IMG/VR virus record: IMGVR_UViG_3300020434_000055
Origin: a virus
Lineage: Duplodnaviria; Caudoviricetes
DNA length: 64,000 nucleotides
Strand: one strand, 5' to 3'
Position 1 is the stretch's first letter. Every line of letters starts with the position of its first letter. Under the pieces are notes generated by a model that was not told where the DNA came from, made no database searches, and saw only the letters and a list, made by a program, of their open reading frames with translations. The position numbers were made by a program, and so were the translations under genes. Of this stretch, positions 8,102 through 35,699 are shown in pieces.

Positions 8102-9870
8102 TGTCAATGCCCGATCCAGGTGCTCCACCTAAACAAACTCATAAAGAGTTGCTAGAGAAAAATAAAGAGTTCTTCGCAGAACTACATGAAAAAGATCCAG
8201 ATGATAAATTTGAAACTATTGTTACAGTAAAAAAAGGTATTAACTGGGAAGTACTTCATAATGAACTTACTAGAGATACTACTGCCGATCCAAGTGTAGA
8301 TTCAAATATCATACCAGATAGAACTGTTGATGTTATTAAGTTAAAATCTACTAATAAAAGAAATACTCATTATAATTTAAGTCCTAACGAAGCAAAAAAA
8401 TTAAAAAATGATCCAAGAATCGAAGCCATTGAAGCACCGTTAGATCCAAGGTTTATAATACAACGAAAATATCATGACGGAGGATTTGAAAAAAGTTCAA
8501 GTCATAATAGCAATTATAGAAGAGATAATTGGGGATTATTAAGACATTGTTCTAAAACTAATAATTATGGATCAAGTACTTCAGATCCTGGTGGTTCATA
8601 TGATTATGTTTTAGATGGTACAGGTGTTGATGTTGTGGCTCAAGATTCTGGAGTTGTAATGGGACATCCTGAATGGGAAGATTCAAATGGAGTTAGTAGA
8701 TATGATATGCATGATTGGTATTCGGTATCTGGAATATCTGGAACTCAAGCTAGTAACTTTTATTCATTAACCGATGGTTCTCATGGATCTCATGTTATGG
8801 GAACAATTGCAGGTAAAAACTTTGGTTGGGCAAAAAATTCTAAAATTTACAGTATGAGAATGTTTGGATCTGGTTCTATTGGCGGTTATGATGGTATGGA
8901 CATAATGAGAGGTTGGCATAATAATAAAAATGATCCAAATCATGCTCTATGGACAGGTACACATAGACCAACTGTAGTTAATATGAGTTGGGGGTCTTCT
9001 TACACCTTTTTTGGTGTAGGTGATGACGGGCCCAGTGTTTTTGGTTTCCCAATAACCAGTGGAAATTATCGTGGAAATTCTTATTCTATTAGTAGCAACA
9101 GTGATATGAGAAATAAAGGTTTAAGTTTTTATGGTTATGTTGATTCAATGGATTGGGCCAATGCAGGTATTAATTCTGTCGCTCGAAATGCCGAGGTCGA
9201 GCAAATGATTGATGATGGTATTATTGTATGTATTGCTTCAGGGAATGACGGTCAAAAATGGGATCTTCCTAGTGGAGCAGATTGGGACAATTACGTTACT
9301 TTAGGAGCAAATAGTTATGGCTATCGTCCTGATGATTATTCTCCCTCTATTTGGGATAACCCTTTTTCTGGAAATAAGTATTATTATAATAGAGGAGGCA
9401 GTCCTAATCCGAATTTTAATAGGGCAGGTCAGGCTTTTGTAGTTGGGTCAATTAATTACAATACTTATAGTTCTACTAGGGATAGAAAAAGTCCTTTTAG
9501 TTCTCAAGGTCCGGGAGTTAATATTTGGACGGCAGGTGAAAGGATTATAAGTTGTTCTGACGGCAGTGCAGGCGGACCATACTACCATGATACCAATTAT
9601 TGGCAAGAGAGAATGCAAGGAACATCTATGGCTAGTCCTCAGGCGGCAGGAATGGCGGCTTTAATATTCCAATTGCACCCCGATTGGACACCTAAACAAG
9701 TTGTAAGTTTTATGATTCAAAATGCTATTCAAAGTAACCTTTATTCTTCAAAAGCTAATGGTGGACTAGAAGATGATTATACTAATCATTGGTCTCTATT
9801 TGGTAGTGAAGGTAATGTTGCTTATATACCAATGGCTAATCGTAAACCTTGGAATTGGAGTTCAACTTAA
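8101..9870 (+). CDS. Subtilisin-like S8 serine protease with N-terminal prodomain
   Basis: Catalytic triad motifs VDVVAQDSG (Asp), HGSHVMGTIAG (His), GTSMASPQAAG (Ser); oxyanion region ASGNDG. Confidence 0.9.
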   Translation: MSMPDPGAPPKQTHKELLEKNKEFFAELHEKDPDDKFETIVTVKKGINWEVLHNELTRDTTADPSVDSNIIPDRTVDVIKLKSTNKRNTHYNLSPNEAKKLKNDPRIEAIEAPLDPRFIIQRKYHDGGFEKSSSHNSNYRRDNWGLLRHCSKTNNYGSSTSDPGGSYDYVLDGTGVDVVAQDSGVVMGHPEWEDSNGVSRYDMHDWYSVSGISGTQASNFYSLTDGSHGSHVMGTIAGKNFGWAKNSKIYSMRMFGSGSIGGYDGMDIMRGWHNNKNDPNHALWTGTHRPTVVNMSWGSSYTFFGVGDDGPSVFGFPITSGNYRGNSYSISSNSDMRNKGLSFYGYVDSMDWANAGINSVARNAEVEQMIDDGIIVCIASGNDGQKWDLPSGADWDNYVTLGANSYGYRPDDYSPSIWDNPFSGNKYYYNRGGSPNPNFNRAGQAFVVGSINYNTYSSTRDRKSPFSSQGPGVNIWTAGERIISCSDGSAGGPYYHDTNYWQERMQGTSMASPQAAGMAALIFQLHPDWTPKQVVSFMIQNAIQSNLYSSKANGGLEDDYTNHWSLFGSEGNVAYIPMANRKPWNWSST

Positions 9871-9874
9871 ATCT

Positions 9875-9882
9875 GATAAATA
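9875..9882 (+). promoter_or_regulatory. T4-like late promoter GATAAATA (representative; also 10593, 13746, 15113, 19757, 26682, 34405, 57884, 63343, with AATAAATA variants at 21489, 22677, 27948, 32124, 34151, 34935)
   Basis: Recurs in short intergenic gaps just upstream of structural and lysis genes; resembles the T4 late consensus TATAAATA. Confidence 0.7.
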
Positions 9883-9898
9883 TGAGTAGGAGATAAAA

Positions 9899-10582
9899 AT
9901 GGCAGTTAGTAGTGTTAATATAGGTAATATAGCAAACGACGGTACAGGAGATGATTTAAGAGAAGCGTTTATTAAAGTTAATAATAATTTCGCTGACTTA
10001 GAGGCTAGAAATCCTGAACAAACTACTGCCTCTAATTTATTACCCGACGATGCTAACACTAAAGGTTTATTTTCTACAGTAACAGATTTTGATTTAAAAT
10101 TTAAAAGTCTTAAAGCAGGTACTAACGTTAGTTTTAGTTCTGATGCTAATCAAATTACTATAACTTCTTCAGGTATTGTCAGTATTCAAGTTACTACTGA
10201 TGCAGGTAGTCTTACTCCAATAGGTAGTACAGGGTTAGCTAGGTTTCTTGGTGCTGGTGGTGTTCTCACAACTGGTGGAGGAACTGACGTAACTATAGAT
10301 TCAAGATTATCTAGAGAATCATCTCCATCTTTAGGAGGTACTCTAGACGCGGCGGCAAATAATATTAATAATGTAGGTACATTAACAGTTCAAAACGTAG
10401 ATGGACTTGTAAAAGGTATAGATGTTGGTAATATTGATTCTGTTGTAGGCTTTGATATGGGTGGAATTGTTCCTACTGCTGTTAGTAACCTAATGCAATG
10501 GTTTGAAAGTTTAAAACCACTTGATATGGGTACTCCAGCTTCTCCAAACGCAACAAACATAGATTTAGGCACTTTAGCATAA
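9899..10582 (+). CDS. Baseplate/tail-fibre connector-like protein (gp9-like N-terminus)
   Basis: VNIGNIANDGTGDDLREAFIKVNNNF motif. Confidence 0.65.
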   Translation: MAVSSVNIGNIANDGTGDDLREAFIKVNNNFADLEARNPEQTTASNLLPDDANTKGLFSTVTDFDLKFKSLKAGTNVSFSSDANQITITSSGIVSIQVTTDAGSLTPIGSTGLARFLGAGGVLTTGGGTDVTIDSRLSRESSPSLGGTLDAAANNINNVGTLTVQNVDGLVKGIDVGNIDSVVGFDMGGIVPTAVSNLMQWFESLKPLDMGTPASPNATNIDLGTLA

Positions 10583-21486: not shown

Positions 21487-21504
21487 TCAATAAATACAAC
21501 TATA

Positions 21505-23036: not shown

Positions 23037-23065
23037 TTGACTTTTTGGTAAAGAGTTGTTATATT
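23037..23065 (+). promoter_or_regulatory. Sigma70-type promoter (dnaJ-def)
   Basis: TTGACT-17-TATATT. Confidence 0.65.
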
Positions 23066-23071
23066 ATTATT

Positions 23072-23923
23072 ATGGCAGACTATTATGATATATTAGGGGT
23101 TAAAAAAGGCGCTTCCCAACAAGATTTAAAAAAAGCATATAAAAAACAAGCGATGAGATATCATCCAGACAAGGGTGGAGACTCTAATAAATTTCAAAAA
23201 ATAAACGAAGCATACGATACACTTAAAGACCCTCAAAAGAAAGCCATGTATGACCAATTTGGTGCTACTGGTAATCAAGGACCTTATTCAAGAACATATT
23301 CAACTGAAGAGTTTGAATTTCCTAATGACATAGGAGATATTTTTAATCAATTCTTTGGTGGATCAAGATCACCGTTTACTCAAAGAAGACAAAGACAAAG
23401 AAATAAAGACATAGCAATTCAAACTCAAATAGATTTAGAAGATGTAATGAATGGTAAATCATTAATTGCAACATATACACTAACAAATGGTAAGCAACAG
23501 AGTGTAAACATTGATTTACCTCCGGGAGTAGAAACAAATACCACGATGAAATTTACAGGACTAGGAGATAATTTCATTCCAAGTATTTCTAGAGGTGATT
23601 TAATGGTAAGAATTAAAGTACGATCTCATTCAAGATGGCATAGAGATGGTGCAAATTTACATTGCGTAGAAAAAGTAAGTGTGTTTGATTTATTATTAGG
23701 AACTAAAAAGGAAATAACAACTGTAGATGGTAAAAAATTATCTATTACCATCCCTAAAGGATGTCAACCAGGTACAGTATTAAGTATTAGTGAACAAGGA
23801 CTACCAAGATTGCATGGCAGAGGCAAAGGTAACATCTATATGACAGTTCAAGCCGATATACCTAACATATCTGATCCAGAAATGTTAAAGCTTCTTCAAA
23901 GGATAAAATATGGAACTAATTAA
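23072..23923 (+). CDS. dnaJ: DnaJ/CbpA-like co-chaperone (J domain plus C-terminal domain, no Zn finger)
   Basis: DYYDILGV, HPD motif, G/F region, GRGKGNIY C-terminal domain. Confidence 0.9.
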   Translation: MADYYDILGVKKGASQQDLKKAYKKQAMRYHPDKGGDSNKFQKINEAYDTLKDPQKKAMYDQFGATGNQGPYSRTYSTEEFEFPNDIGDIFNQFFGGSRSPFTQRRQRQRNKDIAIQTQIDLEDVMNGKSLIATYTLTNGKQQSVNIDLPPGVETNTTMKFTGLGDNFIPSISRGDLMVRIKVRSHSRWHRDGANLHCVEKVSVFDLLLGTKKEITTVDGKKLSITIPKGCQPGTVLSISEQGLPRLHGRGKGNIYMTVQADIPNISDPEMLKLLQRIKYGTN

Positions 23924-24428
23924 ACACCCAAATGAATGGTTAGAGAAAAAAATAAAACCTTTCGACTGGGAAAATTTAGATTCAGAAAAAATTGAACAAG
24001 AAATGGTCTCTATTATGGAGGATAATAAAGGTATAGGTCTGGCGGCAAATCAAGTTGGGTTAGATGCAAGAGTTGTAACAATATTGCCAAAAAATATAAA
24101 AGGAATTACTAAATCTTTTGCAATTATTGATCCTACAATAGAACAAATAAGTCTTAATAAAATTGAAGATGTTGAAGGATGTCTTAGTTTTCCAAAATTA
24201 TGGTTAAAAGTTAGAAGACCAGACAAGGTTACTGTAAAATTTCTTGACAGTAAACAAAAAGAGTGTATAATGGACTTTAGTGGTTATGATGCAAGATGTT
24301 TTCTTCACGAATATGATCATCTGGAAGGAATAACGTTCGTGAGTCCTTTACGAGTTAGCAAATTAAGATTAGATATGGCAATAAAAAGACAACAAAAAAT
24401 AATAAAAGAGGAACAACAAAATGGTTGA
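23910..24428 (+). CDS. def: Peptide deformylase
   Basis: GIGLAANQ, EGCLS, HEYDHLEG motifs. Confidence 0.95.
   Translation: MELIKHPNEWLEKKIKPFDWENLDSEKIEQEMVSIMEDNKGIGLAANQVGLDARVVTILPKNIKGITKSFAIIDPTIEQISLNKIEDVEGCLSFPKLWLKVRRPDKVTVKFLDSKQKECIMDFSGYDARCFLHEYDHLEGITFVSPLRVSKLRLDMAIKRQQKIIKEEQQNG
24244..24271 (+). promoter_or_regulatory. Sigma70-type promoter inside def, upstream of clpA
   Basis: TTGACA-16-TATAAT. Confidence 0.6.
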
Positions 24429-26667
24429 GCCTAGCCAAGAACTCCAATTAGTTTTTGATAAAGCAGTTATAGATGCTAAAAAATTAAAGCATGAATATGT
24501 AACTGTTGAACACTTATTATTTGCAATGCTATGCACTGATAAATTTTCAAATATGATTAAAGGATTCGGTGCAGATGTTGACGATTTAAAAACAGAAGTA
24601 GAAAATTATCTTAAAACTAAATTAAAAACTATAACACTTGAAAATATTTCAAAATATAAACCAAAAAAGACAACAAGTGTAGAAAGAATTCTAAATAGAG
24701 CATTTACCCAAGTATTATTCAGTGGTAGAAGCCATATAGACATCTCAGACGTGTTTCTTAGCATGATGAGTGAAAAGAAAAGCTGGGCTTATTACTTTAT
24801 AATGAAGACCGAAATAAGCAAAGACAAGTTTCAAGACTATCTACACGCCGAAATGGAATCATTATATGAAGATGAAGTTGATCAATCCGCGGCAAAAAGA
24901 GCATTAGGTCTTTATACTACAAATTTAAACAATGAAGTTAAAAAAGAAAGAATAGATCCAGTTATAGGAAGAGTAGAAGAATTAAATTCTATAGCTTTAT
25001 CCTTAGGTAGAAGAACTAAAAATAATGTAATCCTAGTAGGAGATCCAGGTGTAGGAAAAACTGCTATTGCAGAAGGATTAGCATTTAATATTGAAAAGAA
25101 TACTTGTCCTGATTTTTTAAAAGAATATAAAGTGTATAATTTAGACATTGGTGGAATGTTAGCTGGTTCTAAATATAGAGGAGATTTTGAAGAAAGATTT
25201 AAACTTGTATTATCTGCTTTAAAAAAGAAAGGCAAAACAATTTGTTTTATAGATGAAGCACATAATATAAGTGGTGCAGGAGCAGGCGGAACTACAAATA
25301 GTAATGATTTAGCTAATTTATTAAAACCTGTATTAACTAAAGGTGATCTTAAAGTTGTAGCATCAACTACTTGGGAAGATTATAGAAAATATTTTGAAAA
25401 AGACAGAGCTCTAATGAGAAGATTTCAAAGAATTGTAATTGATGAACCAGATAAAGATACTACAGTTAAAATATTACACGGACTTAGAAAATACTATGAA
25501 AATTTTCATAATATTGCAATTACAGATCAAGCAATTAAAGAAGCAGTTAAAACTAGTGTCAAATATCAAACTGATAAAAAATTACCTGACAAAGCAATTG
25601 ATTTAATAGACTTGGCGTGTAGTAGATTTAATCTTAAAGACCCTACTGCTGAAAAAGTAATAGGTCAAGAAGAAATACAATATGAAGTAGCAAAAGCTGT
25701 GAAAATGCCTGTTGAAAACATTCAACAAAAAGAGTCTTCAGCACTTGCTAATTTAGATAAGAATATGAAGAGTGGTGTATTTGGACAAGACAAAGCAATA
25801 GAGTCTGTTATTGATAAAATTATGGTGGCACACGCAGGATTAAAAAGAGAAAACAAACCAATAGGATCATTTGTGTTCATGGGCCCAACAGGTTGTGGTA
25901 AAACAGAAACAGCAAAACAACTTGCAAATCATTTAGGTGTTAAATTAGTCAGATTTGATATGTCAGAGTATCAAGAAAAACACGCAGTATCAAAACTAAT
26001 TGGATCTCCTCCAGGATATGTTGGATTTGAAGAAAATACAGGATTGCTTATAACAAAATTACAAGAACATCCTAATTGCGTATTGCTATTAGATGAAATA
26101 GAAAAAGCACACCCTGATGTTAGTCAAATATTACTTCAAATAATGGATGAAGGAACTGTTATGGGTAATAATGGTAAAGAAGCAGACTGTAAAAATGTTA
26201 CATTAATTTTAACTACTAATTTAGGTGCAGATCAATTAGATAAAAACGTAATGGGATTCACTGACTCCTCATCTACTAGTGAATATGACGATAAAGAAAT
26301 GAAAAAGTTCTTTCCACCAGAATTTAGAAACAGATTAGACGGAACTATTGTATTCCAAAAATTATCAAAAGAAACTCTAATAAAAATTGTTGGTAAGTTT
26401 ATGCTAGAGCTTAGATTGATGTTAAAAGACAAAGATACAGTACTAGAATTAACTGATGAAGCTATTGACTACCTAGTAGACAAAGGATATGATGATAAAA
26501 TGGGTGCTAGACCTATGCAAAGACTAATTGACAATGACATTAAAAGACCTCTATCCAAAGAATTGCTATTTGGTAAGTTAAAAAATGGTGGTAAAGCTAA
26601 AATTGACTCAAAAGATAAGGGTATTACTATCATCTACGAAGAAGCAGTGAAACTAATCAAAAGTTAA
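24421..26667 (+). CDS. clpA: ClpA-type Hsp100 ATPase
   Basis: Clp N-domain, two AAA modules (GDPGVGKT; GPTGCGKT), no middle coiled coil, IGF-like loop VMGF. Confidence 0.92.
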   Translation: MVEPSQELQLVFDKAVIDAKKLKHEYVTVEHLLFAMLCTDKFSNMIKGFGADVDDLKTEVENYLKTKLKTITLENISKYKPKKTTSVERILNRAFTQVLFSGRSHIDISDVFLSMMSEKKSWAYYFIMKTEISKDKFQDYLHAEMESLYEDEVDQSAAKRALGLYTTNLNNEVKKERIDPVIGRVEELNSIALSLGRRTKNNVILVGDPGVGKTAIAEGLAFNIEKNTCPDFLKEYKVYNLDIGGMLAGSKYRGDFEERFKLVLSALKKKGKTICFIDEAHNISGAGAGGTTNSNDLANLLKPVLTKGDLKVVASTTWEDYRKYFEKDRALMRRFQRIVIDEPDKDTTVKILHGLRKYYENFHNIAITDQAIKEAVKTSVKYQTDKKLPDKAIDLIDLACSRFNLKDPTAEKVIGQEEIQYEVAKAVKMPVENIQQKESSALANLDKNMKSGVFGQDKAIESVIDKIMVAHAGLKRENKPIGSFVFMGPTGCGKTETAKQLANHLGVKLVRFDMSEYQEKHAVSKLIGSPPGYVGFEENTGLLITKLQEHPNCVLLLDEIEKAHPDVSQILLQIMDEGTVMGNNGKEADCKNVTLILTTNLGADQLDKNVMGFTDSSSTSEYDDKEMKKFFPPEFRNRLDGTIVFQKLSKETLIKIVGKFMLELRLMLKDKDTVLELTDEAIDYLVDKGYDDKMGARPMQRLIDNDIKRPLSKELLFGKLKNGGKAKIDSKDKGITIIYEEAVKLIKS

Positions 26668-26694
26668 CCTTAGGGCATATAGATAAATATCTAT

Positions 26695-27045
26695 ATGTCA
26701 GCATCAAGTGAAACAATTATGTCAGCAACTACCCATCCTGGGGATAGTACCGTCGAGACTGTCGAAGGTTCTAGCTTTAAGGGTGATGGTTACTATGGTA
26801 GATCGGACGGTGTTCATACTGTTCAATATAGTATTTCTGGTTTTACAGGAACCATTAAAATGCAAGCCACTTTAGCAACAATACCTACAGCAAGTGACTG
26901 GTTTGATGTTAGTGGAACAGAAATAGTATATGCAAGTACTACAACTACCAATGATTACAAAAATTTTACCGGAAATTTTGTATGGGTGAGGGCACACGTG
27001 GTATATACTGATGGAGACATTAACGCCATTAGTTTAAATCATTAA
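26695..27045 (+). CDS. Hypothetical beta-rich late protein
   Basis: Preceded by GATAAATA. Confidence 0.5.
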   Translation: MSASSETIMSATTHPGDSTVETVEGSSFKGDGYYGRSDGVHTVQYSISGFTGTIKMQATLATIPTASDWFDVSGTEIVYASTTTTNDYKNFTGNFVWVRAHVVYTDGDINAISLNH

Positions 27046-27053
27046 GGAGAGTT

Positions 27054-27380
27054 ATGAAAATTAACGAATTTACAACTGTAGACAAACCCAAGTTAGATTT
27101 TAACTTATTAGATGATATACATTATTTCATGATTAATGATTCTAGCTTTTATAGAAAACATTACTTTCCAACAGTAGATAAAGCCAAACAAACAGGCGAC
27201 AATTCAACCTTACAACCTCTGATCGATACAGCAATTAATGAATATTTTAAAACATTTAGATTAAAAATGAGACCTGAAAATGTAATTAAAGATGAAGACA
27301 AACAATCATTAAAACAAAGAATTATAGACAGTGAAAAAGAAGAAGACGATATCGAGAAAGAGCGGAAAGAGAATGAATAA
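27054..27380 (+). CDS. Hypothetical protein with CTS-like N-terminus (MKINEF)
   Basis: Strong RBS AAGGAG. Confidence 0.55.
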   Translation: MKINEFTTVDKPKLDFNLLDDIHYFMINDSSFYRKHYFPTVDKAKQTGDNSTLQPLIDTAINEYFKTFRLKMRPENVIKDEDKQSLKQRIIDSEKEEDDIEKERKENE

Positions 27381-27949
27381 TGAGATTAAAGGAGTTTACT
27401 GAAGCATTATCTAAACCTGCATCTTTCGCCTTTGGTCGAATGAATCCTCCTACCTTAGGACATCAAAAATTAGTTAATACTATCCAATCTCAACCCGGCG
27501 ATCATTTTTTATTTTTAACGCATACTCAAAATGCAAAGACAGATCCTCTAGCATTTGCTGAAAAATTGTTTTTTACTCAACAAATGTTTGCAGGAATTAA
27601 AATAGGTGACCCTAAAGTCAGAACAATAATCCAAGCCATGCAAAAATTAGAACAAATGGGGTATACCGATATCACATATGTGGCTGGTAGCGACAGGGTC
27701 AATGAATTTAGAGAATTATTAAACAAATATAATGGTCAAGAATATACATTTGATTCTATTAAAACCGTAAATGCAGGTACTAGAGACCCTGATTCACAAG
27801 GTGTAGAAGGTATGAGTGCAAGAATGGTAAGAGATTTAGCGGCTAGAGGTGATAAAATTGCTTTTATGAAAGCAATACCAGGTGATAGAAAATTAGCAAC
27901 CATGATGTATGACAAACTTAGAAGTAAATTAAATGTACCAGCAATTTAA
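27380..27949 (+). CDS. Cytidyltransferase-like (HxGH-superfamily) nucleotidyltransferase
   Basis: FGRMNPPTLGH, VAGSDRV, GMSA motifs as in T4-like phage cytidyltransferases. Confidence 0.8.
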   Translation: MRLKEFTEALSKPASFAFGRMNPPTLGHQKLVNTIQSQPGDHFLFLTHTQNAKTDPLAFAEKLFFTQQMFAGIKIGDPKVRTIIQAMQKLEQMGYTDITYVAGSDRVNEFRELLNKYNGQEYTFDSIKTVNAGTRDPDSQGVEGMSARMVRDLAARGDKIAFMKAIPGDRKLATMMYDKLRSKLNVPAI

Positions 27950-27960
27950 TAAATATACAT

Positions 27961-28167
27961 ATGGAAATAGCGAAATTAAAAAAATTAGCAGGCATTACGG
28001 ACTCAGAGGCACCCTCAGAAACACAACTTAATATTAGTCATACAGCACAGGCATTAAAAGACAGAGAAAAGGCATTAGGTTTAAGACCCGGTGATCCAGG
28101 CTGGTTTAAATTATGGTTTAGTAGACCATTAATGCAACAAAGTAAAGGATATAAAAGTAGAAAATGA
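27961..28167 (+). CDS. Hypothetical protein
   Basis: Late-type AATAAATA upstream. Confidence 0.5.
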   Translation: MEIAKLKKLAGITDSEAPSETQLNISHTAQALKDREKALGLRPGDPGWFKLWFSRPLMQQSKGYKSRK

Positions 28168-30290
28168 ACTTACGTGAATTCATAAAAGATTTTAGAGTTA
28201 ATTCACTAGCTGAATTTAGACAAGTTGTTACTCCACGAGATGAAAAACATTATAGAGAATTAATGAAACATCTTCATGCTATGGAATTAGACCCTGTAAA
28301 TAGAAGTGATCCTGATCTTATGGGAGAAATCCGAAGAAGAAGAATGGAATTAAGAGGCTGGGCTGAAAAAAATATAAAAAGAGAAGATACTGTTAAAGAA
28401 GTTCCAGGAATGACACAATCGGCTAATACACAGGCGGCAGGTGTGAATCATTTAGGATTACCATCAGATGATGTAGTAAAAGAAGATAACGAAGAATTTT
28501 CTTTTGGTCAAATAGCAAAAGCAAAAGCATATGCTAAATTATATGTAGATAATTATACAACCGCTGTAAAAAATATTGAAAGAATTGCAAAAGGATTATC
28601 AAGTCATCCAGATGTTGCTGATGCATTAAGAAAAGCAAACGAAGATGACGAACCACAAATAACAGATTATACAGATGTAGTTTCACCAGAAGAAATGGCA
28701 AAAATATGGTATTATGATGAAAAACACGGTAGAGCTAAAGACTTACAAGCACGATTTAAAACTTGGCAAGATTATTACAAGTCAGATGACTTTGAATTAG
28801 ATTTAGATCATTTAAGAAGTAAATTTGAAGATGACGATAAAGACGAATTAATGAAAAAATTTCTTGCTAAAGGTGGTAAAATTCAAAAATTAAAACCAGG
28901 AATTCCTAAAGGTGCAACTCATATGGATCGAAGAGGGGATTATAAGAAAAGTGACTTTCCTAATGTAAAATTTCAAAATAGAAAAGACGTAGAAAAATCA
29001 AAAAGTAAAGCTCTAAGAAGTACACCTATAACAAGTCCAATGAGTGATGAATCAGTAAAAGAAGATTCTGAAGCAAGTTTATTAGGTGCCGCACAGGCTT
29101 CTTTAAGTCATGGATTAGAACTAGCTGATGCTGTACTTAAAGATGATAATAATATGGCAAAAGTTATATCTTCTACTATTAAAGAAAATTGGCCTCCTTT
29201 AATTGATAAAATTCAAAATGTATATAAAACTGATTCTGCAAAAGAAGAATTATCTAAAATACTAAATTTTGATAAAAAAGATTATGGATTGAAAGAAAGA
29301 ATGCCAGCATCTATTATTAAACATAAACAAAAACTTGATATGATGACTGATAAAGAATTAGCAATCAGATTTCAAGACAAAGATGAAAACACACTACGTC
29401 ATATGGCTTGGAGACATGGTTACGGTAAAATGAGTTCACACTATTGGGATAGAGTTCAAGCAGGTAAACAAGAAACAACTGAAGATTTAGATCATCTAGG
29501 ATTATCAATAAAAAAAGAAGATGATGGCGGTAGAGCTCAACAGGCATACAAATTAGCAAGAGATCAAAAAGTTGATTATGCCAATATAATGTTTCGTGGT
29601 AAAGAAATAGATCATAATAGCATAGACTATGACATGAAGGATTTTAGTGATATGATATTTGAACTACATGGAGCAAAATATATAGATGGCACACCTTTAA
29701 CTGATGAAGAATTAGAAGAATTTGAAAAAACAGATGAACTTCTTGATTGGGTTGCTGAGGATTATGCAACACAAGGAGAATCAGTTAAAGAAGAAGCACC
29801 ATTTGGAACAGGAATGGATTTAGTTAGAATGGCTGTATTTAGAAAATTTATATCAGCAGAAGAATATGTAAATTTTGCAAAAGAATTAAAAACAGCAGGT
29901 GAAGAAGTTGCTAATAGTGAACAGTATGCAGATTGGCCTGATGGAGAAGGCTTTGGTTCATCTGATGGAAACTTTGCAATTAGAGATTTAATGAGTACAG
30001 CAGGATACGAATTTGATGACAATGATACAAGTGGTAGATTTGTTGTAACTAAAATGCCAAAAAAATTACAAAAATTAGGTATAACAAATGCAAGAATGAA
30101 ACAACCTGAATTACCTCTTAAACAAGAAGGGGATAGTGATGGAGTCCAACCTGCTGATTTAAAAAGAATGGGTCTTTCAACTCCTAAAGCATATGTTCAT
30201 AAAGATGGACGAACAGTAATGATTAATAAAAAAGATTTACAAAAATATCTTAAAAAAGGGTGGCAAAAATCTAGTTTAAGAGCAGAGTAA
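28164..30290 (+). CDS. Acidic modular protein, putative head-internal polyprotein
   Basis: MNLREFI N-terminus; repeated xxVKE/ETTE linkers between unrelated segments. Confidence 0.55.
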   Translation: MNLREFIKDFRVNSLAEFRQVVTPRDEKHYRELMKHLHAMELDPVNRSDPDLMGEIRRRRMELRGWAEKNIKREDTVKEVPGMTQSANTQAAGVNHLGLPSDDVVKEDNEEFSFGQIAKAKAYAKLYVDNYTTAVKNIERIAKGLSSHPDVADALRKANEDDEPQITDYTDVVSPEEMAKIWYYDEKHGRAKDLQARFKTWQDYYKSDDFELDLDHLRSKFEDDDKDELMKKFLAKGGKIQKLKPGIPKGATHMDRRGDYKKSDFPNVKFQNRKDVEKSKSKALRSTPITSPMSDESVKEDSEASLLGAAQASLSHGLELADAVLKDDNNMAKVISSTIKENWPPLIDKIQNVYKTDSAKEELSKILNFDKKDYGLKERMPASIIKHKQKLDMMTDKELAIRFQDKDENTLRHMAWRHGYGKMSSHYWDRVQAGKQETTEDLDHLGLSIKKEDDGGRAQQAYKLARDQKVDYANIMFRGKEIDHNSIDYDMKDFSDMIFELHGAKYIDGTPLTDEELEEFEKTDELLDWVAEDYATQGESVKEEAPFGTGMDLVRMAVFRKFISAEEYVNFAKELKTAGEEVANSEQYADWPDGEGFGSSDGNFAIRDLMSTAGYEFDDNDTSGRFVVTKMPKKLQKLGITNARMKQPELPLKQEGDSDGVQPADLKRMGLSTPKAYVHKDGRTVMINKKDLQKYLKKGWQKSSLRAE

Positions 30291-31231
30291 TGAAAATAAG
30301 ACAATTCTACATAGCATCTGAAGATACTTTAACAAAAGGACAAAAAAAGAAAAAAGAAAAATATGTTAAAGGCATGAAGAAAGGTGCAAAAGATTTCAAA
30401 AAAAGATACGGTGACGACTATAAATCAGTAATGTATGCTACTGCTACAAAAATGGCTAAAGAAAACACAAATGAAAGTCCTATAGAACAAGATAGAGATA
30501 ATCCTATTGCAAAACCATATGTAGATACTCCAGAGTGGAAAGCTCTACACGATATGGATGATAAAATTATTGACGCATACATCAAACATAAAGAAGAATC
30601 AGTTGAAGAAGATCAAATTCCAAGTAATATGCCAGGTGGCATTGGAGACTATGCTAGAGAAATAGCAACAGGCAAACTTGTAAGAATAGTTGACTATACA
30701 GATGATGACGAAGGCATTTACACAATATCTTACGGTGATGGTAAAGGTGAAACAGATGTAGTAGCGAAAGATTTAAAATTTAAGGACCCTACTTCTTATT
30801 GGTCCGATGAAGAAACAACAGAAGGAGCTAATTTAAATCCTTATTTCTTAACTAAAAAAGAATTTGATGGTAAAATGAGAGACGTTTGGGATTTTCCAGA
30901 TGGCTATGGAGATGAAGACGACAGTCCTTATCTTTCAAACTTTTCAATGAGAGATGTATTAAATTCATTAGGTTTAGATCCTAATTTCGAAGATGCAGGA
31001 CCTATTGAAATTAATAAATTTATTAATATTACAACTCAATGGTTAAAGAAAAATATTAATAAACCTTCAGCAGAAGTTCCTACAACAGTTGATAAAAGTG
31101 GGGGCGGTGCTACAATGATAGGTGGTGGAAAACCAGAAGGTTACGAAAATAAAGTCATAATGGGATTCAATCAATTCGCACGTAGTATCAAACAAAAATA
31201 TCCTAAAGTTACGCATATAGGAATTGCGTAA
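30290..31231 (+). CDS. Modular protein, putative head-internal polyprotein
   Basis: MKIRQF...ASE N-terminus; ESVEE and EETTE linkers; basic KRYGDDYKSVMYATATKMAK module. Confidence 0.55.
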   Translation: MKIRQFYIASEDTLTKGQKKKKEKYVKGMKKGAKDFKKRYGDDYKSVMYATATKMAKENTNESPIEQDRDNPIAKPYVDTPEWKALHDMDDKIIDAYIKHKEESVEEDQIPSNMPGGIGDYAREIATGKLVRIVDYTDDDEGIYTISYGDGKGETDVVAKDLKFKDPTSYWSDEETTEGANLNPYFLTKKEFDGKMRDVWDFPDGYGDEDDSPYLSNFSMRDVLNSLGLDPNFEDAGPIEINKFINITTQWLKKNINKPSAEVPTTVDKSGGGATMIGGGKPEGYENKVIMGFNQFARSIKQKYPKVTHIGIA

Positions 31232-31237
31232 AATTCA

Positions 31238-31804
31238 ATGTTACTTACAGAAATAGATGGTCAAGAGCCAGTGAACAAACCAATAGTCTATGTAGATTTG
31301 GATGGTGTATTAGCAGACTTCTTTGGTGGAGTAGAAAAACTATATGGTGTTGATCATTGGAAACAATTAGTATCAGATAAAACTAAAGATCTTAAAATGG
31401 AAGTAATAAACAAAATTCAAGGTACAGATTTTTTTGCAACATTACCTAAATTCCCAACTGCTGATCAATTACTTGCTATTGTTAAAGAATATACAGGGGG
31501 CACATTTTCAATTTTATCATCTCCTTTAAGAGGTGATCACCAAAATTCTGCAAATCATAAAAAGACTTGGATAAGTCAAAATATAGAAGCACCTGCTGAA
31601 ATTATTATTACTGGACGGAAAGAATCATATGCAAAAGACAAAAGAACAGGTACTTCTAATATACTAATTGATGATAGACCTAAAAATCTTGATCGCTTTA
31701 AGGCGTCAGGAGGTTATGGTATTTTATATCAAGCTAATAGAAATCCGGTAAGTAAAGTAAAAATGGAGTTGGAGCAATATGCCAAAATTTACGGGGATCA
31801 ATAG
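31238..31804 (+). CDS. HAD-family 5'(3')-deoxyribonucleotidase
   Basis: VYVDLDGVLADF, ILSSP, K, LIDDR motifs. Confidence 0.88.
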   Translation: MLLTEIDGQEPVNKPIVYVDLDGVLADFFGGVEKLYGVDHWKQLVSDKTKDLKMEVINKIQGTDFFATLPKFPTADQLLAIVKEYTGGTFSILSSPLRGDHQNSANHKKTWISQNIEAPAEIIITGRKESYAKDKRTGTSNILIDDRPKNLDRFKASGGYGILYQANRNPVSKVKMELEQYAKIYGDQ

Positions 31805-31949
31805 AGCTTATTCAAGCGGTAAACCTGACAAGAGATCTTCACAAGAAGAACGTGACAGATTAATGAAAGAATTCCTTGCCAAAGGTGGCAAAATACAAAA
31901 AATTAAATCTAAGATAACAAAACAAATGTTAGATAGAGGTAAATTATAA
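31779..31949 (+). CDS. 56-aa basic protein (not in ORF track)
   Basis: GGAG RBS; contains LMKEFLAKGGKIQK. Confidence 0.6.
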   Translation: MPKFTGINRAYSSGKPDKRSSQEERDRLMKEFLAKGGKIQKIKSKITKQMLDRGKL

Positions 31950-32128
31950 TGAAAATTGTTGAAATTATAGCATTACCTTTAAACGATTCAAGGGCAAAAA
32001 TTATTAACCTTATAAAAACCAAAAATGAAACTGCAGGCGTTGGAATTATTACTAAACAAAACACTACTAAAGACGTAAAACCAGGCGAAACATGGAGGCA
32101 AGCGAAGAAACTTAAATTAGTCAAATAA
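31949..32128 (+). CDS. 59-aa basic protein, MKIVEII N-terminus (not in ORF track)
   Basis: TAATG coupling to the previous ORF. Confidence 0.55.
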   Translation: MKIVEIIALPLNDSRAKIINLIKTKNETAGVGIITKQNTTKDVKPGETWRQAKKLKLVK

Positions 32129-32137
32129 ATACAATGT

Positions 32138-32509
32138 ATGAGGAAGATAGCATCTATAATAGTAGTTTCATTTATATTAGTAAGTTGTACACTTATTCCT
32201 AGTAAATGGGACTCAAATCAGTCTTATGCAATTACTGATCTTAGACAAATAGTAAGATCTATAGACTGCGACGGTGATGTAGTAAGAAAACTTAATCACC
32301 TTAATTATAGGCTAGAATGGCTAATGTTGTACAATGAAAGTAAAGGTACTAAAGACGTAGGAAATTTGGTTACTTTATTCAATGAAACTGTACAAACATT
32401 TAGACAAAAATCTACCTCATTTAGTAAAGGATATTGTACAAGTAAAAAAGAAATAATGATCGAACAATCTGATATGATTGCTCGAGCAATCCAGAGGAGG
32501 ATAAAGTAA
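32138..32509 (+). CDS. Putative lipoprotein
   Basis: Signal peptide with LVSC lipobox. Confidence 0.55.
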   Translation: MRKIASIIVVSFILVSCTLIPSKWDSNQSYAITDLRQIVRSIDCDGDVVRKLNHLNYRLEWLMLYNESKGTKDVGNLVTLFNETVQTFRQKSTSFSKGYCTSKKEIMIEQSDMIARAIQRRIK

Positions 32510-32790
32510 TGGCGATTACACAAGAACACGAAGACAACCTAACAGCCGTAGTTACAGCTGATGACGGATTAAAATCTGTTGCAGAAGCGGCTCAAGCCTT
32601 AGTTGCATCAAGAAAAGCAAACTCTATAACAGAATTAGCATTTATTGATTCTTTGAATGCTCTAATTGATGGCGACAAAGAGACTGAGCAAGATGCTGTA
32701 GCAGGTGGTCAAGGTAAGTCTGCAGAAAAACTACATTTTGCTATTAAAGGCATGATGAAAGTTAGTAATAATACTGGCCCTTGGGCATAG
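32509..32790 (+). CDS. Hypothetical protein
   Basis: Coupled ORF. Confidence 0.5.
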   Translation: MAITQEHEDNLTAVVTADDGLKSVAEAAQALVASRKANSITELAFIDSLNALIDGDKETEQDAVAGGQGKSAEKLHFAIKGMMKVSNNTGPWA

Positions 32791-32820
32791 TTCATAATTT
32801 TATTAACTAAAAGGAACATC

Positions 32821-33063
32821 ATGGCAGATAAAAACATCGAAGCATTAAGAGAGTTAGCTGGTGCAAACAACTGGGCTTCTAAAAAAGCTCAAATGGCTCT
32901 TGACTTAACACAACAAAGAGTTGAAGGTTCTATAACTAAATCAGAATATGAAGAACTAGTTGACGATTTAATAAGAACTGACGAAGTTGCCCAGCGAGCT
33001 CAAAATGTAGAAATTGCATCTAAATTAAAATGGGCTGTTCAAGGTTTATTAAAAATCTTATAA
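32821..33063 (+). CDS. Hypothetical protein
   Basis: RBS AAGGA; helical. Confidence 0.5.
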   Translation: MADKNIEALRELAGANNWASKKAQMALDLTQQRVEGSITKSEYEELVDDLIRTDEVAQRAQNVEIASKLKWAVQGLLKIL

Positions 33064-33069
33064 TGAATA

Positions 33070-33258
33070 ATGCCAAAGAAAAAGAAACGCAAAAAAAAGC
33101 AACAAGAACCATTTGTAGACATGATTTGGATGCATCATGATTTATGGAATAATTCAGGTAGAACACGAGAAGACATTGAAGAAGAAGTGTATGGTGTAAC
33201 AAATACAGCAGGTTACAAAAGTATAAATTATCCAAAAGGACATCCTAAAAATCCATGA
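33070..33258 (+). CDS. Hypothetical protein with basic N-terminus
   Basis: ORF in operon context. Confidence 0.45.
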   Translation: MPKKKKRKKKQQEPFVDMIWMHHDLWNNSGRTREDIEEEVYGVTNTAGYKSINYPKGHPKNP

Positions 33259-33473
33259 AAATTTATGAAATATTAGAAAGTCAAGCCGTCAAAGATTTTA
33301 AAACCAGATACGATCACCATTATGGTTATGATCCTGAATTACTATCCTACCAACACGAAATTGGTAAAATTTACGGTAAAAAGAATTTAAAAGTCCCCCA
33401 CGCCAAGTATAGCATAAGTAAAAGAGCCAAACAAATTTATAAAGGCAAAAATGGAAGTAAAAATAATAAATGA
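33255..33473 (+). CDS. Hypothetical protein, MKIYEILE N-terminus
   Basis: ATGA overlap with the previous ORF. Confidence 0.5.
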   Translation: MKIYEILESQAVKDFKTRYDHHYGYDPELLSYQHEIGKIYGKKNLKVPHAKYSISKRAKQIYKGKNGSKNNK

Positions 33474-34152
33474 ACAAGAAGTTTTTGCTATAAATCCATC
33501 ATTAACAGTCCAAACAAAAAATATCGGAAAATATAAAATTGCTATTGCAGACAATTTTTATAAAAATCCAGAAATGGTCCGTGAATTAATCCTAACAATA
33601 CCTAGTACTAACAATGAAAAACATAAAGGTGGTATGGTTGGTAGACGTGTAGAAGCATACTATGATTTAAGTCCATTAGCAGATCCCTTTCATAAAATAT
33701 TAACTAACTTATGGGATTATACAAAAAATTGGTCATATGATGCAATTTATGAAATGTTTAAACAATCATCGTTTATTGGAAATATAATGAATGAAGAAAT
33801 GTTAGAGTCTAGAACACCTCATCAAGATGGCCCTAAGACATTACCTAAACAATTTATTCCTTCACACACTGGATTTGCTTCTTCTGTTTTCTTAAACACA
33901 CCTCAAGAATGTGCTGGAGGTACAGCACTATACACATACAAAGGAGAACAATCTCCTCTTCAAATGCCTGATCAATCTGTAGATCATTTTATAACAGAAT
34001 CCGAAGGTGATTGGGAAAAAATAGGATTAATTGAAATGAAATGGAATAGAATGGTTATATATAATAATTTTATTCTACATACTCCATATGTTAAACAAGG
34101 AATGGGCTTTACTGGTAACATCTATAGAATCAATCAAATGATATTTCCTTAA
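33451..34152 (+). CDS. 2OG-Fe(II) oxygenase-like protein
   Basis: PHQD (HxD), SVFLN...GGTALY, NRMVIY...LH distal His. Confidence 0.7.
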   Translation: MEVKIINEQEVFAINPSLTVQTKNIGKYKIAIADNFYKNPEMVRELILTIPSTNNEKHKGGMVGRRVEAYYDLSPLADPFHKILTNLWDYTKNWSYDAIYEMFKQSSFIGNIMNEEMLESRTPHQDGPKTLPKQFIPSHTGFASSVFLNTPQECAGGTALYTYKGEQSPLQMPDQSVDHFITESEGDWEKIGLIEMKWNRMVIYNNFILHTPYVKQGMGFTGNIYRINQMIFP

Positions 34153-34163
34153 TAAATAGTAGT

Positions 34164-34409
34164 ATGAGAGTATGTGAAATTGTTACAGAAGCGGCTACAC
34201 CAGGTGCTACATCATCTGGTAATATAGCAACGGTTGTATCACCACATATTGCTATTGGTCCAGATAGATACGGAAATTCATATACAGGTAGTCCAGGTAA
34301 ATCAGGTACAAAAGCACCAAGAGTGCCTAAACCTAAAAAGATAAAACCTACTGACAATGCACTAGATATGAAAGGTGTAAGCATTTTTGGATCACCTATT
34401 AAGAGATAA
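34164..34409 (+). CDS. Small late protein, MRVCEIVTE N-terminus
   Basis: AATAAATA upstream. Confidence 0.55.
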   Translation: MRVCEIVTEAATPGATSSGNIATVVSPHIAIGPDRYGNSYTGSPGKSGTKAPRVPKPKKIKPTDNALDMKGVSIFGSPIKR

Positions 34410-34420
34410 ATACTACTAAT

Positions 34421-34915
34421 ATGAAATATAAACAAATTAAAGAAAAATTCGCAGACGAGGCTGGTAAAGCTGAAAAGGATCATGAAGTGCAAATGGCACG
34501 AGGTGATTTATATAAAGCCGCGAAGTATTCAATTAAACTTCATGACATGATGAAAAATATCAGTGAAACTGAAGGATTAGAAGGATGGATACAAGAAAAA
34601 ATTACTAAAGCGTCTGATTATTTAAATACAGTATTCAATCACTTTGATTATAAAAGTAAATTCAACAATTCAGTAAATTTTGTTGGTGAAACTAATCCTT
34701 TGCCCGATATGAACAAGTATGGAATATACACTACAAAAAGTAAAGATGGTGATTTCCAAGTATGGCAAAATGAAAAACATTTAGGAACGTTTAAATCAAT
34801 AGAAGATGTTGATGCGTTTTTACATGATTATTTAAACAAAGAAGAATCAACTAATGAAAAAGATTCTTACAAAGAAGACCTTTCTACAAAACTTCAAAAT
34901 AAGTTATCAAAATAA
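34421..34915 (+). CDS. Modular late protein, MKYKQIKE N-terminus
   Basis: GATAAATA upstream; DHEVQMARGDLY...WIQEKITKASDYL module. Confidence 0.55.
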   Translation: MKYKQIKEKFADEAGKAEKDHEVQMARGDLYKAAKYSIKLHDMMKNISETEGLEGWIQEKITKASDYLNTVFNHFDYKSKFNNSVNFVGETNPLPDMNKYGIYTTKSKDGDFQVWQNEKHLGTFKSIEDVDAFLHDYLNKEESTNEKDSYKEDLSTKLQNKLSK

Positions 34916-34988: not shown

Positions 34989-35699
34989 ATGGCTTATTTA
35001 ATAGCAAACTTGCCACCAGTAGACTGTTATGTTAGAATGGAATATCTCTATGACCTGCAAAAAGATGATAACGGAAAATTATTAGGTCAAGGCAAATATA
35101 CTCCTGCTGTCTGGGTTACTGTAAAAAGTATATCAGGTAAAGCATTATATATAGAATCCTTACTTCCAGAATATGGTGCATTATACGATAAACTACCTCT
35201 GAGTGCATACGTTTGGAAAACAGATGCAGATACAAGTAAATTTTTACCTTTAGATCATTTAGAAATTTGGGATTCCTTTTCATATTACATTACAGTTTTA
35301 GAAAAAGCAACATTATCAGGACTTCGTTGTTCATTTTTAGGTAAAGACAAAAAAATGCATAGTGGTGAATATATGTTTACAATAGATAGTTGCCATAGTG
35401 ATGATAATGAACTTAATACAACTTTTTCTGAAATACCTGATGAACACAAATCATTTAATATAATGAAATTAGATAACGGACAATATGCCGCACAACCAAA
35501 TAACAGAATGAGATGGTTTGAGCAAAGTTTGGTATCTCATGAAACTAAAATGCCAGATTTTAAAGTTAGCACAAGAGAATATAGTGTTGAAGATAATCCA
35601 AAATGGTCAGCCAATTATGGCGAGGGCGATACTTGGGCATACGAAATAAAAGAAAGCAAACCAAAAATAGACAAACCCGATTTAAATAAAGACAAATAA
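34989..35699 (+). CDS. Hypothetical protein
   Basis: Strong RBS GAGG; long globular ORF. Confidence 0.6.
   Translation: MAYLIANLPPVDCYVRMEYLYDLQKDDNGKLLGQGKYTPAVWVTVKSISGKALYIESLLPEYGALYDKLPLSAYVWKTDADTSKFLPLDHLEIWDSFSYYITVLEKATLSGLRCSFLGKDKKMHSGEYMFTIDSCHSDDNELNTTFSEIPDEHKSFNIMKLDNGQYAAQPNNRMRWFEQSLVSHETKMPDFKVSTREYSVEDNPKWSANYGEGDTWAYEIKESKPKIDKPDLNKDK

Follow-up and report, generated by a model that had tools for sequence, protein, structure and literature searches.

How does a phage mark the proteins that it packs into its head, and can such a mark be read from the genes? The question is raised by IMG/VR virus record IMGVR_UViG_3300020434_000055, a 64,000-nucleotide stretch of Caudoviricetes DNA (in the following, the window), in which a run of genes encodes otherwise unrelated proteins with a common N-terminal start. 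An interpretation made earlier from the letters of the window (the sequence-only reading) had proposed that these starts resemble the capsid-targeting sequence (CTS) of phage T4, and that the proteins are late-expressed, packaged in the head and injected first. Here, we examine this island (26682-34915) by comparison with related phages. We will argue that it quite probably consists of late-expressed capsid cargo genes, the products of which would be packaged into the head by way of a T4-like leader.

Phage proteins that enter the host with the DNA are known for few model phages; they are the first to act, and include anti-restriction and host-takeover factors. Already known are the leader principle, from T4, and the virion association of the T4-GC190 protein family discussed below. 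New are the shorter form of the leader, the large size and the plasticity that the island has in an abundant clade of marine jumbo phages, the polyprotein-like arrays with protease-type linkers, and a capsid-protein mimic.

The G+C content of the window is about 32%, and its + strand carries nearly all genes. Sinorhizobium phage Phosso and Agrobacterium phage Atu_ph07 have DNA polymerases with 47% identity to that of the window, and the RaK2 group one with 43%; the window therefore represents an uncultured jumbo member of the T4 superfamily. A megablast search of the island against phage records returned no near-identical phage, and a tblastn search of these records gave no match to the island's 708-amino-acid (aa) protein (gene 28164; genes are named here by their first position). 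The nearest homologues of the neighbouring clpA-like gene in cultured phages are only 42-46% identical.

The N-terminal leader in the window and across the clade

The nine starts given by the sequence-only reading are found at the positions that it named: MKINEF (27054), MRLKEFTE (27380), MNLREFI (28164), MKIRQF..ASE (30290), MLLTEI..QE (31238), MKIVEII (31949), MKIYEILE (33255), MRVCEIVTE (34164) and MKYKQIKE (34421). With the pattern M-[KRNL]-[ILVY]-x-[EQ]-[FI], nine of the 16 plus-strand open reading frames (ORFs) between 27054 and 34915 are thus tagged, and BLASTP detects no relatedness among the nine proteins beyond the leader, as had been stated. The expectation that the motif should be commoner here than elsewhere was also borne out. 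In an automatic both-strand ORF set, in which an antisense ORF displaced 34164, the expression ^M[KRNL][ILVY].[EQ][FI] matches 8 of 16 ORFs inside the island and none of the 74 elsewhere in the window (Fisher p = 1.7e-7). A clear L/I-x-E-type site is present in the leaders of 27380, 33255, 34164 and 34421, and in 28164 at residues 15-17.

The leader is not confined to this phage. The clpA-like gene is encoded on more than 598 IMG/VR contigs, which were found through this gene, and the best 80 loci among them were used as the clade set. A relaxed pattern fits 190 of 758 ORFs downstream of clpA compared with 20 of 1014 upstream (25% vs 2%), and the DnaJ start MDYYELLG accounts for 12 of the 20 upstream matches. 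The tagged clade proteins fall into 69 architecture clusters with lengths of 51-915 aa; a two-sided coverage criterion was used for the clustering in place of single linkage, which gave one giant cluster because modules are fused. The consensus of the leaders is M-[K/R]-[I/L]-R-[E/D/Q]-[L/I/F]-x-E. The last Glu is outside the search pattern, and a [LIVMF]-x-E ending at residue 8 is present in 73 of the 182 distinct leaders (40%), as opposed to 41 of 1352 other N-termini (3%). In four close relatives the tag is kept in orthologues with conservative changes (MNLHDL, MRSKEF, MKFFEV, MKHKEI). Some orthologues of 27054 have the T4 register (MVRLNEF), and the 34164 family has an invariant Glu that is set off from the first part of the leader by a spacer of variable length.

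The gene content of the island is hypervariable across the clade. In the complete relative G005 (357.6 kb), the pattern fits only 16 of 461 ORFs; those that look genuine are clustered, with five at one contig end, three behind clpA and two at the head module, one of them inside it and the other close by. The five genes at the contig end (reverse-complement 4647-10161) form a second cluster far from clpA, which includes a DUF6267 protein and a protein matching a PHROG virion-structural family. DUF6267 stands after clpA in the islands of other relatives, and cargo genes therefore move between islands. Another relative's island encodes a 714-aa protein (L044:8982-11126) with PG_binding_1 (E 1e-19) and a C-terminal 27054 module.

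How does this leader compare with that of T4? The CTS quoted by the sequence-only reading, MKTYQEFIAE, is correct for ipII and ipIII in the T4 record NC_000866, while ipI starts with MKTFKEFTST, gp24 with MAKINELLRE and alt with MELITELFDE; all five share hydrophobic-x-E-[FL]. As a control, the loose pattern was applied to T4, where it fits 13 of 271 ORFs, including ipI, ipII, ipIII, gp24 and alt.-1. The first ten residues of IPIII suffice for targeting; residues 4 and 7 of the CTS serve targeting and residues 8 and 10 processing, and an Asp at residue 10 stops the cutting, which is done by gp21 after L/I-x-E, and leaves targeting unaffected (PMC9026906). The clade leader is similar in being a short sequence on unrelated proteins in which two hydrophobic residues, three apart, surround a Glu and are, in many of the leaders, followed by hydrophobic-x-Glu. 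The two hydrophobic residues three apart are present in all nine window proteins and in the 182 distinct clade leaders. The two systems are also alike in their apparent late expression, S77 protease, conserved L-x-E cut of the capsid protein and hypervariable set of tagged genes. They differ in that the leader has 8 residues here and 10 in T4, each of its two parts being shorter by one residue, and that nine or more tagged genes stand in one island, with a cargo that includes enzymes and polyprotein-like arrays.

Regarding the timing of expression, the late-promoter-like motif RATAAATA occurs in 15 copies on the + strand and in none on the - strand, and all of these are intergenic, 5-46 nucleotides (nt) 5' of a start codon. 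Those in or adjoining the island are at 26682, 27948, 32124, 34151, 34405 and 34935; the motif is also found upstream of baseplate-like and virion-structural genes. Sigma-70-like sites within the island are not above chance, RATAAATA sites being the only clear promoter-like ones there, and relatives encode a gp55-type late sigma factor (E 2e-75). The island therefore looks late-transcribed, and at the level of the motif, its strand-specific intergenic placement, its use by virion genes and the gp55 homologue of relatives, the earlier claim of late expression holds. The further claim that several tagged genes follow such promoters is correct in the direct sense for 34164 and 34421 only; the others lie further downstream in the same apparent operons.

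One property of these promoters deserves a separate remark. At 21489, 22677, 26682, 27948, 32124, 34151 and 34405 the motif ends 5-8 nt before the ATG, and a Shine-Dalgarno sequence is absent. In T4, transcription begins a few bases past the late-promoter motif. If the start falls similarly here, these seven late mRNAs would be leaderless or nearly so.

Head machinery, module joints and virion homologues

A first line of evidence is the head machinery of the clade. In two relatives, G001 and G005, the portal gene is followed by a 79-82-aa ORF (MILRELF), ORFs of 198-205 and 322-360 aa, a Peptidase_S77 protease (E 1e-25), a 363-aa scaffold-like coiled-coil protein in which [LIV]xE occurs 18 times, and a capsid protein of Gp23 type. 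T4 genes 20, 67, 68, 21, 22 and 23 have the same gene-order framework with fewer genes, and the small ORF of the relatives, which stands in the gp67 position, has its own RATAAATA. In a MAFFT alignment, LTE/A of T4 gp23 (63-66; a slash marks a cut or junction) falls on LAE/A of the G001 capsid protein and LAE/S of that of G005. The maturation cut of T4 gp23 is at 65/66. This alignment of L-x-E sites suggests that the specificity of the clade protease is probably conserved. The cultured Pectobacterium phage CBB, for which a proteome is published, agrees in the order of its head module and also encodes a homologue of the small ORF in the gp67 position.

A second line of evidence comes from the larger proteins. 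Modules that are separate and tagged in the window (NT5C, 34164, 34421 and part of 30290) are internal in 240-772-aa proteins of relatives, and the 786-aa and 915-aa orthologues of the 708-aa protein have its blocks in another order. We define a joint as the place where a tagged stand-alone protein aligns inside a larger relative. Among 188 non-redundant joints, an [LIVM]xE is found within 12 residues in 80%, compared with 28% at random positions of the same proteins. MKYKQIKE/ thus corresponds to SVKE/, TVKE/ or SVQE/ before the same ..LA.. domain (that of 34421), MRFQELIE/GA to SVKE/GAS, and MRVHEIFE/NLGE to QMKE/NLGE, while internal NT5C modules are preceded by ..AKE/SKLNEL.. or ..LAE/SKVNEI... 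In 30290, ETTE/GANL aligns with the SVKE/GASM joints of relatives. Since one joint rule (V/M/I-x-E) is common to at least six unrelated module families, it points to hydrophobic-x-Glu at the joints being a functional site and not a trace of shared ancestry.

The third line of evidence is a copy of the capsid protein's own cut segment. After its leader, 34164 continues with AATPGATSSGNIATV, and the G001 capsid protein directly after the predicted cut with AATAGATSAGNVATL. About 30 members of the 34164 family have 9-15 identities to the 19-residue capsid-protein segment that spans the cut, whereas no unrelated protein in a background of 2024 exceeds 8; in the whole genome of G005, the best non-self match to the segment is the island member of the family. 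These scores are ungapped identity counts, and BLASTP with composition correction does not report the similarity. In T4, gene 61.1 (NC_000866 18966-19130) encodes a 54-aa hypothetical protein with the start MKTFKEFIKE, the first 38 residues of which, leader included, align with gp23 56-93, Glu10 falling on Glu65 of gp23. The 34164 family and gp61.1 are thus alike in combining a CTS-like start with an in-register copy of the phage's own capsid-protein cut segment. They are unlike in that homology between their sequences is undetectable, and that the T4 gene lies beside the primase gene and not in a cargo island.

We now consider the gene that links the island, by homology, to purified virions. 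The nucleotidyltransferase 27380 has matches in 559 phage records, mostly T4-like cyanophages, in which it is the core gene T4-GC190. It matches the S-BM3 gene, which carries the record note T4-GC_190, with E 2e-40 (tblastn), and ORF154 of Synechococcus phage S-CREM2 with E 1e-20 (BLASTP), and its catalytic motif FGRMNPPTLGH aligns with FGRYNPPHKGH ((H/T)xGH). The T4-GC190 protein was detected by mass spectrometry (MS) in purified S-SM1 virions (Sullivan et al. 2010, PMC3037559). The S-CREM2 virion proteome contains ORF154 and its neighbours 155, 156 and 160, also an S-adenosylmethionine (SAM) hydrolase and a kinase, and cytidyltransferases are often detected in cyanophage virions (PMC10665884).

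In the S-CREM2 record (OR473000), ORF154 starts with MKNFSSFLTE/A and stands behind CTATAAATA. Similar starts are seen in ORF6, the SAM hydrolase (MKDFDSFLEE), ORF13 (MKDLHSFLTE), ORF14, the kinase (VKRFDAFLTE), and ORF136 (MQTFSMFFSE). A T4-register pattern fits four S-CREM2 ORFs, all four of them MS-detected, and none of the 180 undetected ORFs (p = 0.002); the kinase ORF14, with its annotated start, is a fifth MS-detected protein with a near-T4 CTS, and all five are non-structural. Modules of tagged island proteins of the clade recur in two further virion proteins, ORF137 and ORF160. Literature linking the CTS with cyanophage virion proteins was not found in the collection searched. The cyanophage T4-GC190 proteins are homologous to 27380, carry leaders in the T4 register (MKNFSSFLTE) and occur in purified virions. 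They differ from 27380 in their length of 286-385 aa and in a long spacer after the leader; the leader itself is shorter in the jumbo clade. We also note that the S-CREM2 leader motif, M-K-x-F-x-S-F-L-T-E, resembles T4 gp23 just before its cut (AFGSFLTE/A).

Probable packaging into the head and the alternatives

Taken together, the core idea of a head-packaging leader is strongly supported by comparison: the tag is clade-wide, and there are the joints, the capsid mimic, the protease, the late sigma factor and a 27380 homologue in virions. These supporting lines do not depend on one another. As to the leader being like that of T4, its layout speaks for this, and three details of the sequence-only reading need revision: the form is a shorter variant (residues 3/6 in place of 4/7), the first Glu may not be the cut site, and two members are mosaic arrays.

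The mechanism that we envisage is as follows. Each tagged product would have a flexible leader of 8-13 residues in two parts. The first, M-[K/R]-hydrophobic-x-[E/D/Q]-hydrophobic, would correspond to T4 CTS residues 4 and 7 and dock on the scaffolding core during prohead formation. The second, a hydrophobic-x-Glu that is adjacent or follows after a short spacer, would correspond to T4 residues 8 and 10 and be the substrate of the phage's T4-type (S77) prohead protease. The mosaic proteins would be cut by the same protease at their V/M/I-x-E linkers. Separate modules would then lie in the head with the DNA: the T4-GC190 nucleotidyltransferase, the NT5C-type nucleotidase, small basic proteins and the mimic of the capsid N-arm. 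By analogy with T4 IPI and Alt, they would enter the host together with the DNA, and the analogy with these and with polyvalent proteins (PMC5512222) suggests that the cargo may be ejected and play a role in the host. The proposal of the sequence-only reading that these proteins are injected first, and may be a reservoir of anti-defence factors, likewise stands by analogy with T4 IPI and Alt.

Iyer et al. (2017, PMC5512222) proposed that polyvalent proteins of phages and conjugative elements are packaged and that their domains are released separately. They are similar to large island proteins of the relatives in being multi-module proteins that mix enzymes such as ParB-like nucleases and are encoded near late or virion genes. 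Proteins of our phage's relatives combine NT5C with ParB-like and other modules, and the 708-aa and 313-aa mosaics of the window are without recognised domains. Unlike in polyvalent proteins, an embedded peptidase or a MuF domain was absent when ten large island proteins were compared with Pfam and PHROG, and release would here take place in trans, by the prohead protease at hydrophobic-x-Glu linkers. In phiKZ, 201phi2-1 and SPN3US, a protease related to gp21 processes numerous proteins inside the head, cutting after Glu at redundant sites (PMC9026906). Such inner-body and ejection proteins are comparable in this mode of cutting, and differ in their S/A/G-x-E motif, where P3 is V, M, I, L or F here, in their long propeptides and in belonging to another phage lineage.

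It is important to point out what speaks against packaging by such a leader. The case is read here from genes, and is well supported but indirect. Neither megablast and tblastn searches of phage records nor the clpA homologues yielded a cultured member of the clade, and the head module, which the window does not include, was taken from relatives whose island proteins are 62-79% identical. Phage CBB has no tag cluster, with 10 of 644 ORFs matching at scattered positions. The tag pattern was set post hoc, after inspection of the data, as was the T4-register pattern for S-CREM2; homologous joints are not independent events; and the authors of the S-CREM2 proteome point out that abundant soluble proteins may co-purify with virions (PMC10665884). 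In the leaders themselves, the hydrophobic pair is at residues 3 and 6, as opposed to 4 and 7 in T4. A second hydrophobic-x-Glu near the N-terminus is missing in 27054 and 31949 and poor in 30290 and 31238. A third of the leaders have D or Q at residue 5, and the first Glu need therefore not be the cut site.

Other explanations of the shared start have to be weighed against this. The tagged proteins could be components of the prohead core or of its assembly, like T4 gp67, gp68 and gp22, and be degraded and expelled before DNA packaging. The tagged ORF in the gp67 position and the mimicry of the capsid-protein cut site by the 34164 family would fit with this, as would the fact that T4 core proteins are cleaved to fragments that exit the head (PMC9026906). 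However, folded enzyme domains (nucleotidyltransferase, NT5C, ParB-like) make unlikely scaffolds, the T4-GC190 homologue is present in mature virions, and the gene content is hypervariable, unlike that of assembly proteins; we consider a core role unlikely. Still smaller is the probability that the leader is a degron or chaperone tag for another N-terminal reader, such as the dnaJ-def-clpA products, that would time the life of late proteins in a manner unrelated to the capsid. The island does directly follow the clpA-like gene across the clade, and the ClpA-like protein, judged from its translation, retains a ClpP-docking-type loop (MGF). The adjacency is, however, partly selected, because clpA was the search anchor, and G005 has its five-gene tagged cluster far from clpA and one tagged ORF in the head module. 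The capsid mimic, the hydrophobic-x-Glu joints and the detection of homologues in virions would also be left unexplained.

The last two explanations dispense with a protein-level function of the leader. We find it very improbable that the start is a nucleic-acid or translation-initiation feature, i.e. A/U-rich early codons, a downstream box or a recombination cassette. The 32% G+C of the genome, the frequent AAA or AGA as second codon and the very short or absent 5' leaders of several genes agree with such a feature; against it, the residue changes in orthologues are conservative (E/D/Q; F/I/L/V), as expected of selection on the protein, and the initiation contexts vary (strong Shine-Dalgarno, stop-start overlap, promoter 5 nt upstream). 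In addition, the motif is absent from other late genes, the upstream DNA is not shared, and the same motif is found inside proteins at module joints. Finally, the nine starts could be a chance or compositional coincidence, or the functionless remnant of one duplicated gene, and it is true that the motif is short and was defined post hoc. Nevertheless, the contrast within the window has p of about 1e-7 and is replicated in 80 loci and a complete genome, the proteins are unrelated past the leader, and the excess of Glu at residue 8 does not depend on the pattern. This possibility is strongly disfavoured, and we give it hardly any weight.

Loading into the capsid thus remains the most likely role of the tag, and a list of probable injected proteins can therefore be read from sequence. 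With such a rule, candidate injected proteins could be listed for hundreds of uncultured marine jumbo-phage contigs, and judging by S-CREM2 it would serve cultured cyanophages as well, where it would explain the recurring T4-GC190 nucleotidyltransferase in virion proteomes. Polyprotein processing by the prohead protease would moreover offer a route to cargo evolution through module shuffling. More tentatively, and with clear reservations, one may go a step further and regard leader and linker as one universal plug, in which either an M-K-hydrophobic-x-E-hydrophobic-x-E start or an internal S-V-K-E would confer head loading and release by the protease. Modules could then shift freely between stand-alone genes and polyproteins, and for the abundant T4-like phages of the sea, cyanophages as well as jumbo phages, the entire set of injected proteins would be readable from sequence. 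A pre-made NMNAT-like transferase and a nucleotidase could in that case act before phage expression, for example against defences that deplete nucleotides or nicotinamide adenine dinucleotide (NAD).

Genes of the island and its borders

The features of the island are as follows.

26682-26689, +: late-promoter-like GATAAATA, 5 nt before the ATG of 26695; stands at the start of what appears to be the island's first operon
26695-27045, +: untagged 116-aa protein with PHROG virion-structural matches; conserved first gene after clpA throughout the clade
27054-27380, +: 108 aa, tag MKINEF; commonest cargo family of the clade, 34 members
27380-27949, +: 189 aa, tag MRLKEFTE/A; nucleotidyltransferase (TLGH motif) of the cyanophage T4-GC190 'cytidyltransferase' family
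27948-27955, +: late-promoter-like AATAAATA, 5 nt before the ATG of 27961
27961-28167, +: conserved small protein of 68 aa, untagged (MEIAKLKK); some orthologues meet the pattern (MNISDLK, MDLDELR)
28164-30290, +: 708 aa, tag MNLREF and L-A-E at residues 15-17; highly charged mosaic, its modules rearranged in relatives
30290-31231, +: 313 aa, tag MKIRQF..IASE; mosaic with SVEE at residue 104
31238-31804, +: 188 aa, tag MLLTEIDGQE; NT5C-type HAD nucleotidase
31779-31949, +: untagged basic 56-aa protein with the second KFLAKGGKIQK motif; 26-nt overlap with the end of the NT5C gene
31949-32128, +: 59 aa, tag MKIVEI; basic
32124-32131, +: late-promoter-like AATAAATA, 6 nt before the ATG of 32138
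32138-33258, +: four small ORFs without tag (32138, 32509, 32821, 33070)
33255-33473, +: 72 aa, tag MKIYEILE/S; basic
33451-34152, +: untagged 233-aa DUF6445 protein (phrog_1644)
34151-34158, +: late-promoter-like AATAAATA, 5 nt before the ATG of 34164
34164-34409, +: 81 aa, tag MRVCEIVTE/, then AATPGATSSGNIATV, which copies the capsid-protein segment; counterpart of T4 gp61.1
34405-34412, +: late-promoter-like GATAAATA, 8 nt before the ATG of 34421
34421-34915, +: 164 aa, tag MKYKQIKE/; its residue-8 Glu is invariant and abuts a conserved domain

The cargo proteins are hydrophilic, with 21-40% charged residues. An AlphaFold2 model of 27054 is a helical bundle with a predicted local distance difference test (pLDDT) score of 82.6, in which residues 1-15, i.e. 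the leader, are disordered; Foldseek found no PDB match for it. The model of 34421 has a pLDDT of 62.5, which is too low for a structure search, and in the ESM Atlas this protein has only unnamed viral clusters as matches. PDB sequence searches with 27380 and 31238 gave marginal matches only, and Pfam returned nothing for most small island proteins and for several large proteins of relatives.

The 708-aa protein has TVKE at residue 76, SVKE at 297 and again at 540, and a KFLAKGGKIQK motif. Its residues 224-249 and residues 23-48 of the 31779 protein are stretches of this type with 65% identity over 26 residues, and in Pfam both match the SutA RNA-polymerase-binding domain weakly and below threshold (E 2e-3 and 3e-5). 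The host RNA polymerase could be a target of the two proteins if they are packaged. The 26-nt overlap of 31779 with the 3' end of the NT5C gene, in another frame, is kept in the relatives L002 and L004. The ORF at 32138-32509 (123 aa) has its own RATAAATA and a lipoprotein-type signal start, with a hydrophobic run ending in Cys; it is untagged though inside the island.

The island is flanked by a dnaJ-def-clpA block before it and a dsbA-like gene after it. The block (23045-26667), directly 5' of the island, encodes a J-domain protein, a peptide deformylase and a full-length ClpA-like ATPase, and has its own sigma-70-like promoter. Just 3' of the island, at 34989-35699, lies a gene for a 236-aa protein with its own AATAAATA, which is conserved across the clade; the protein matches no Pfam family, and phrog_3704 ('ferredoxin') at E 1e-90.

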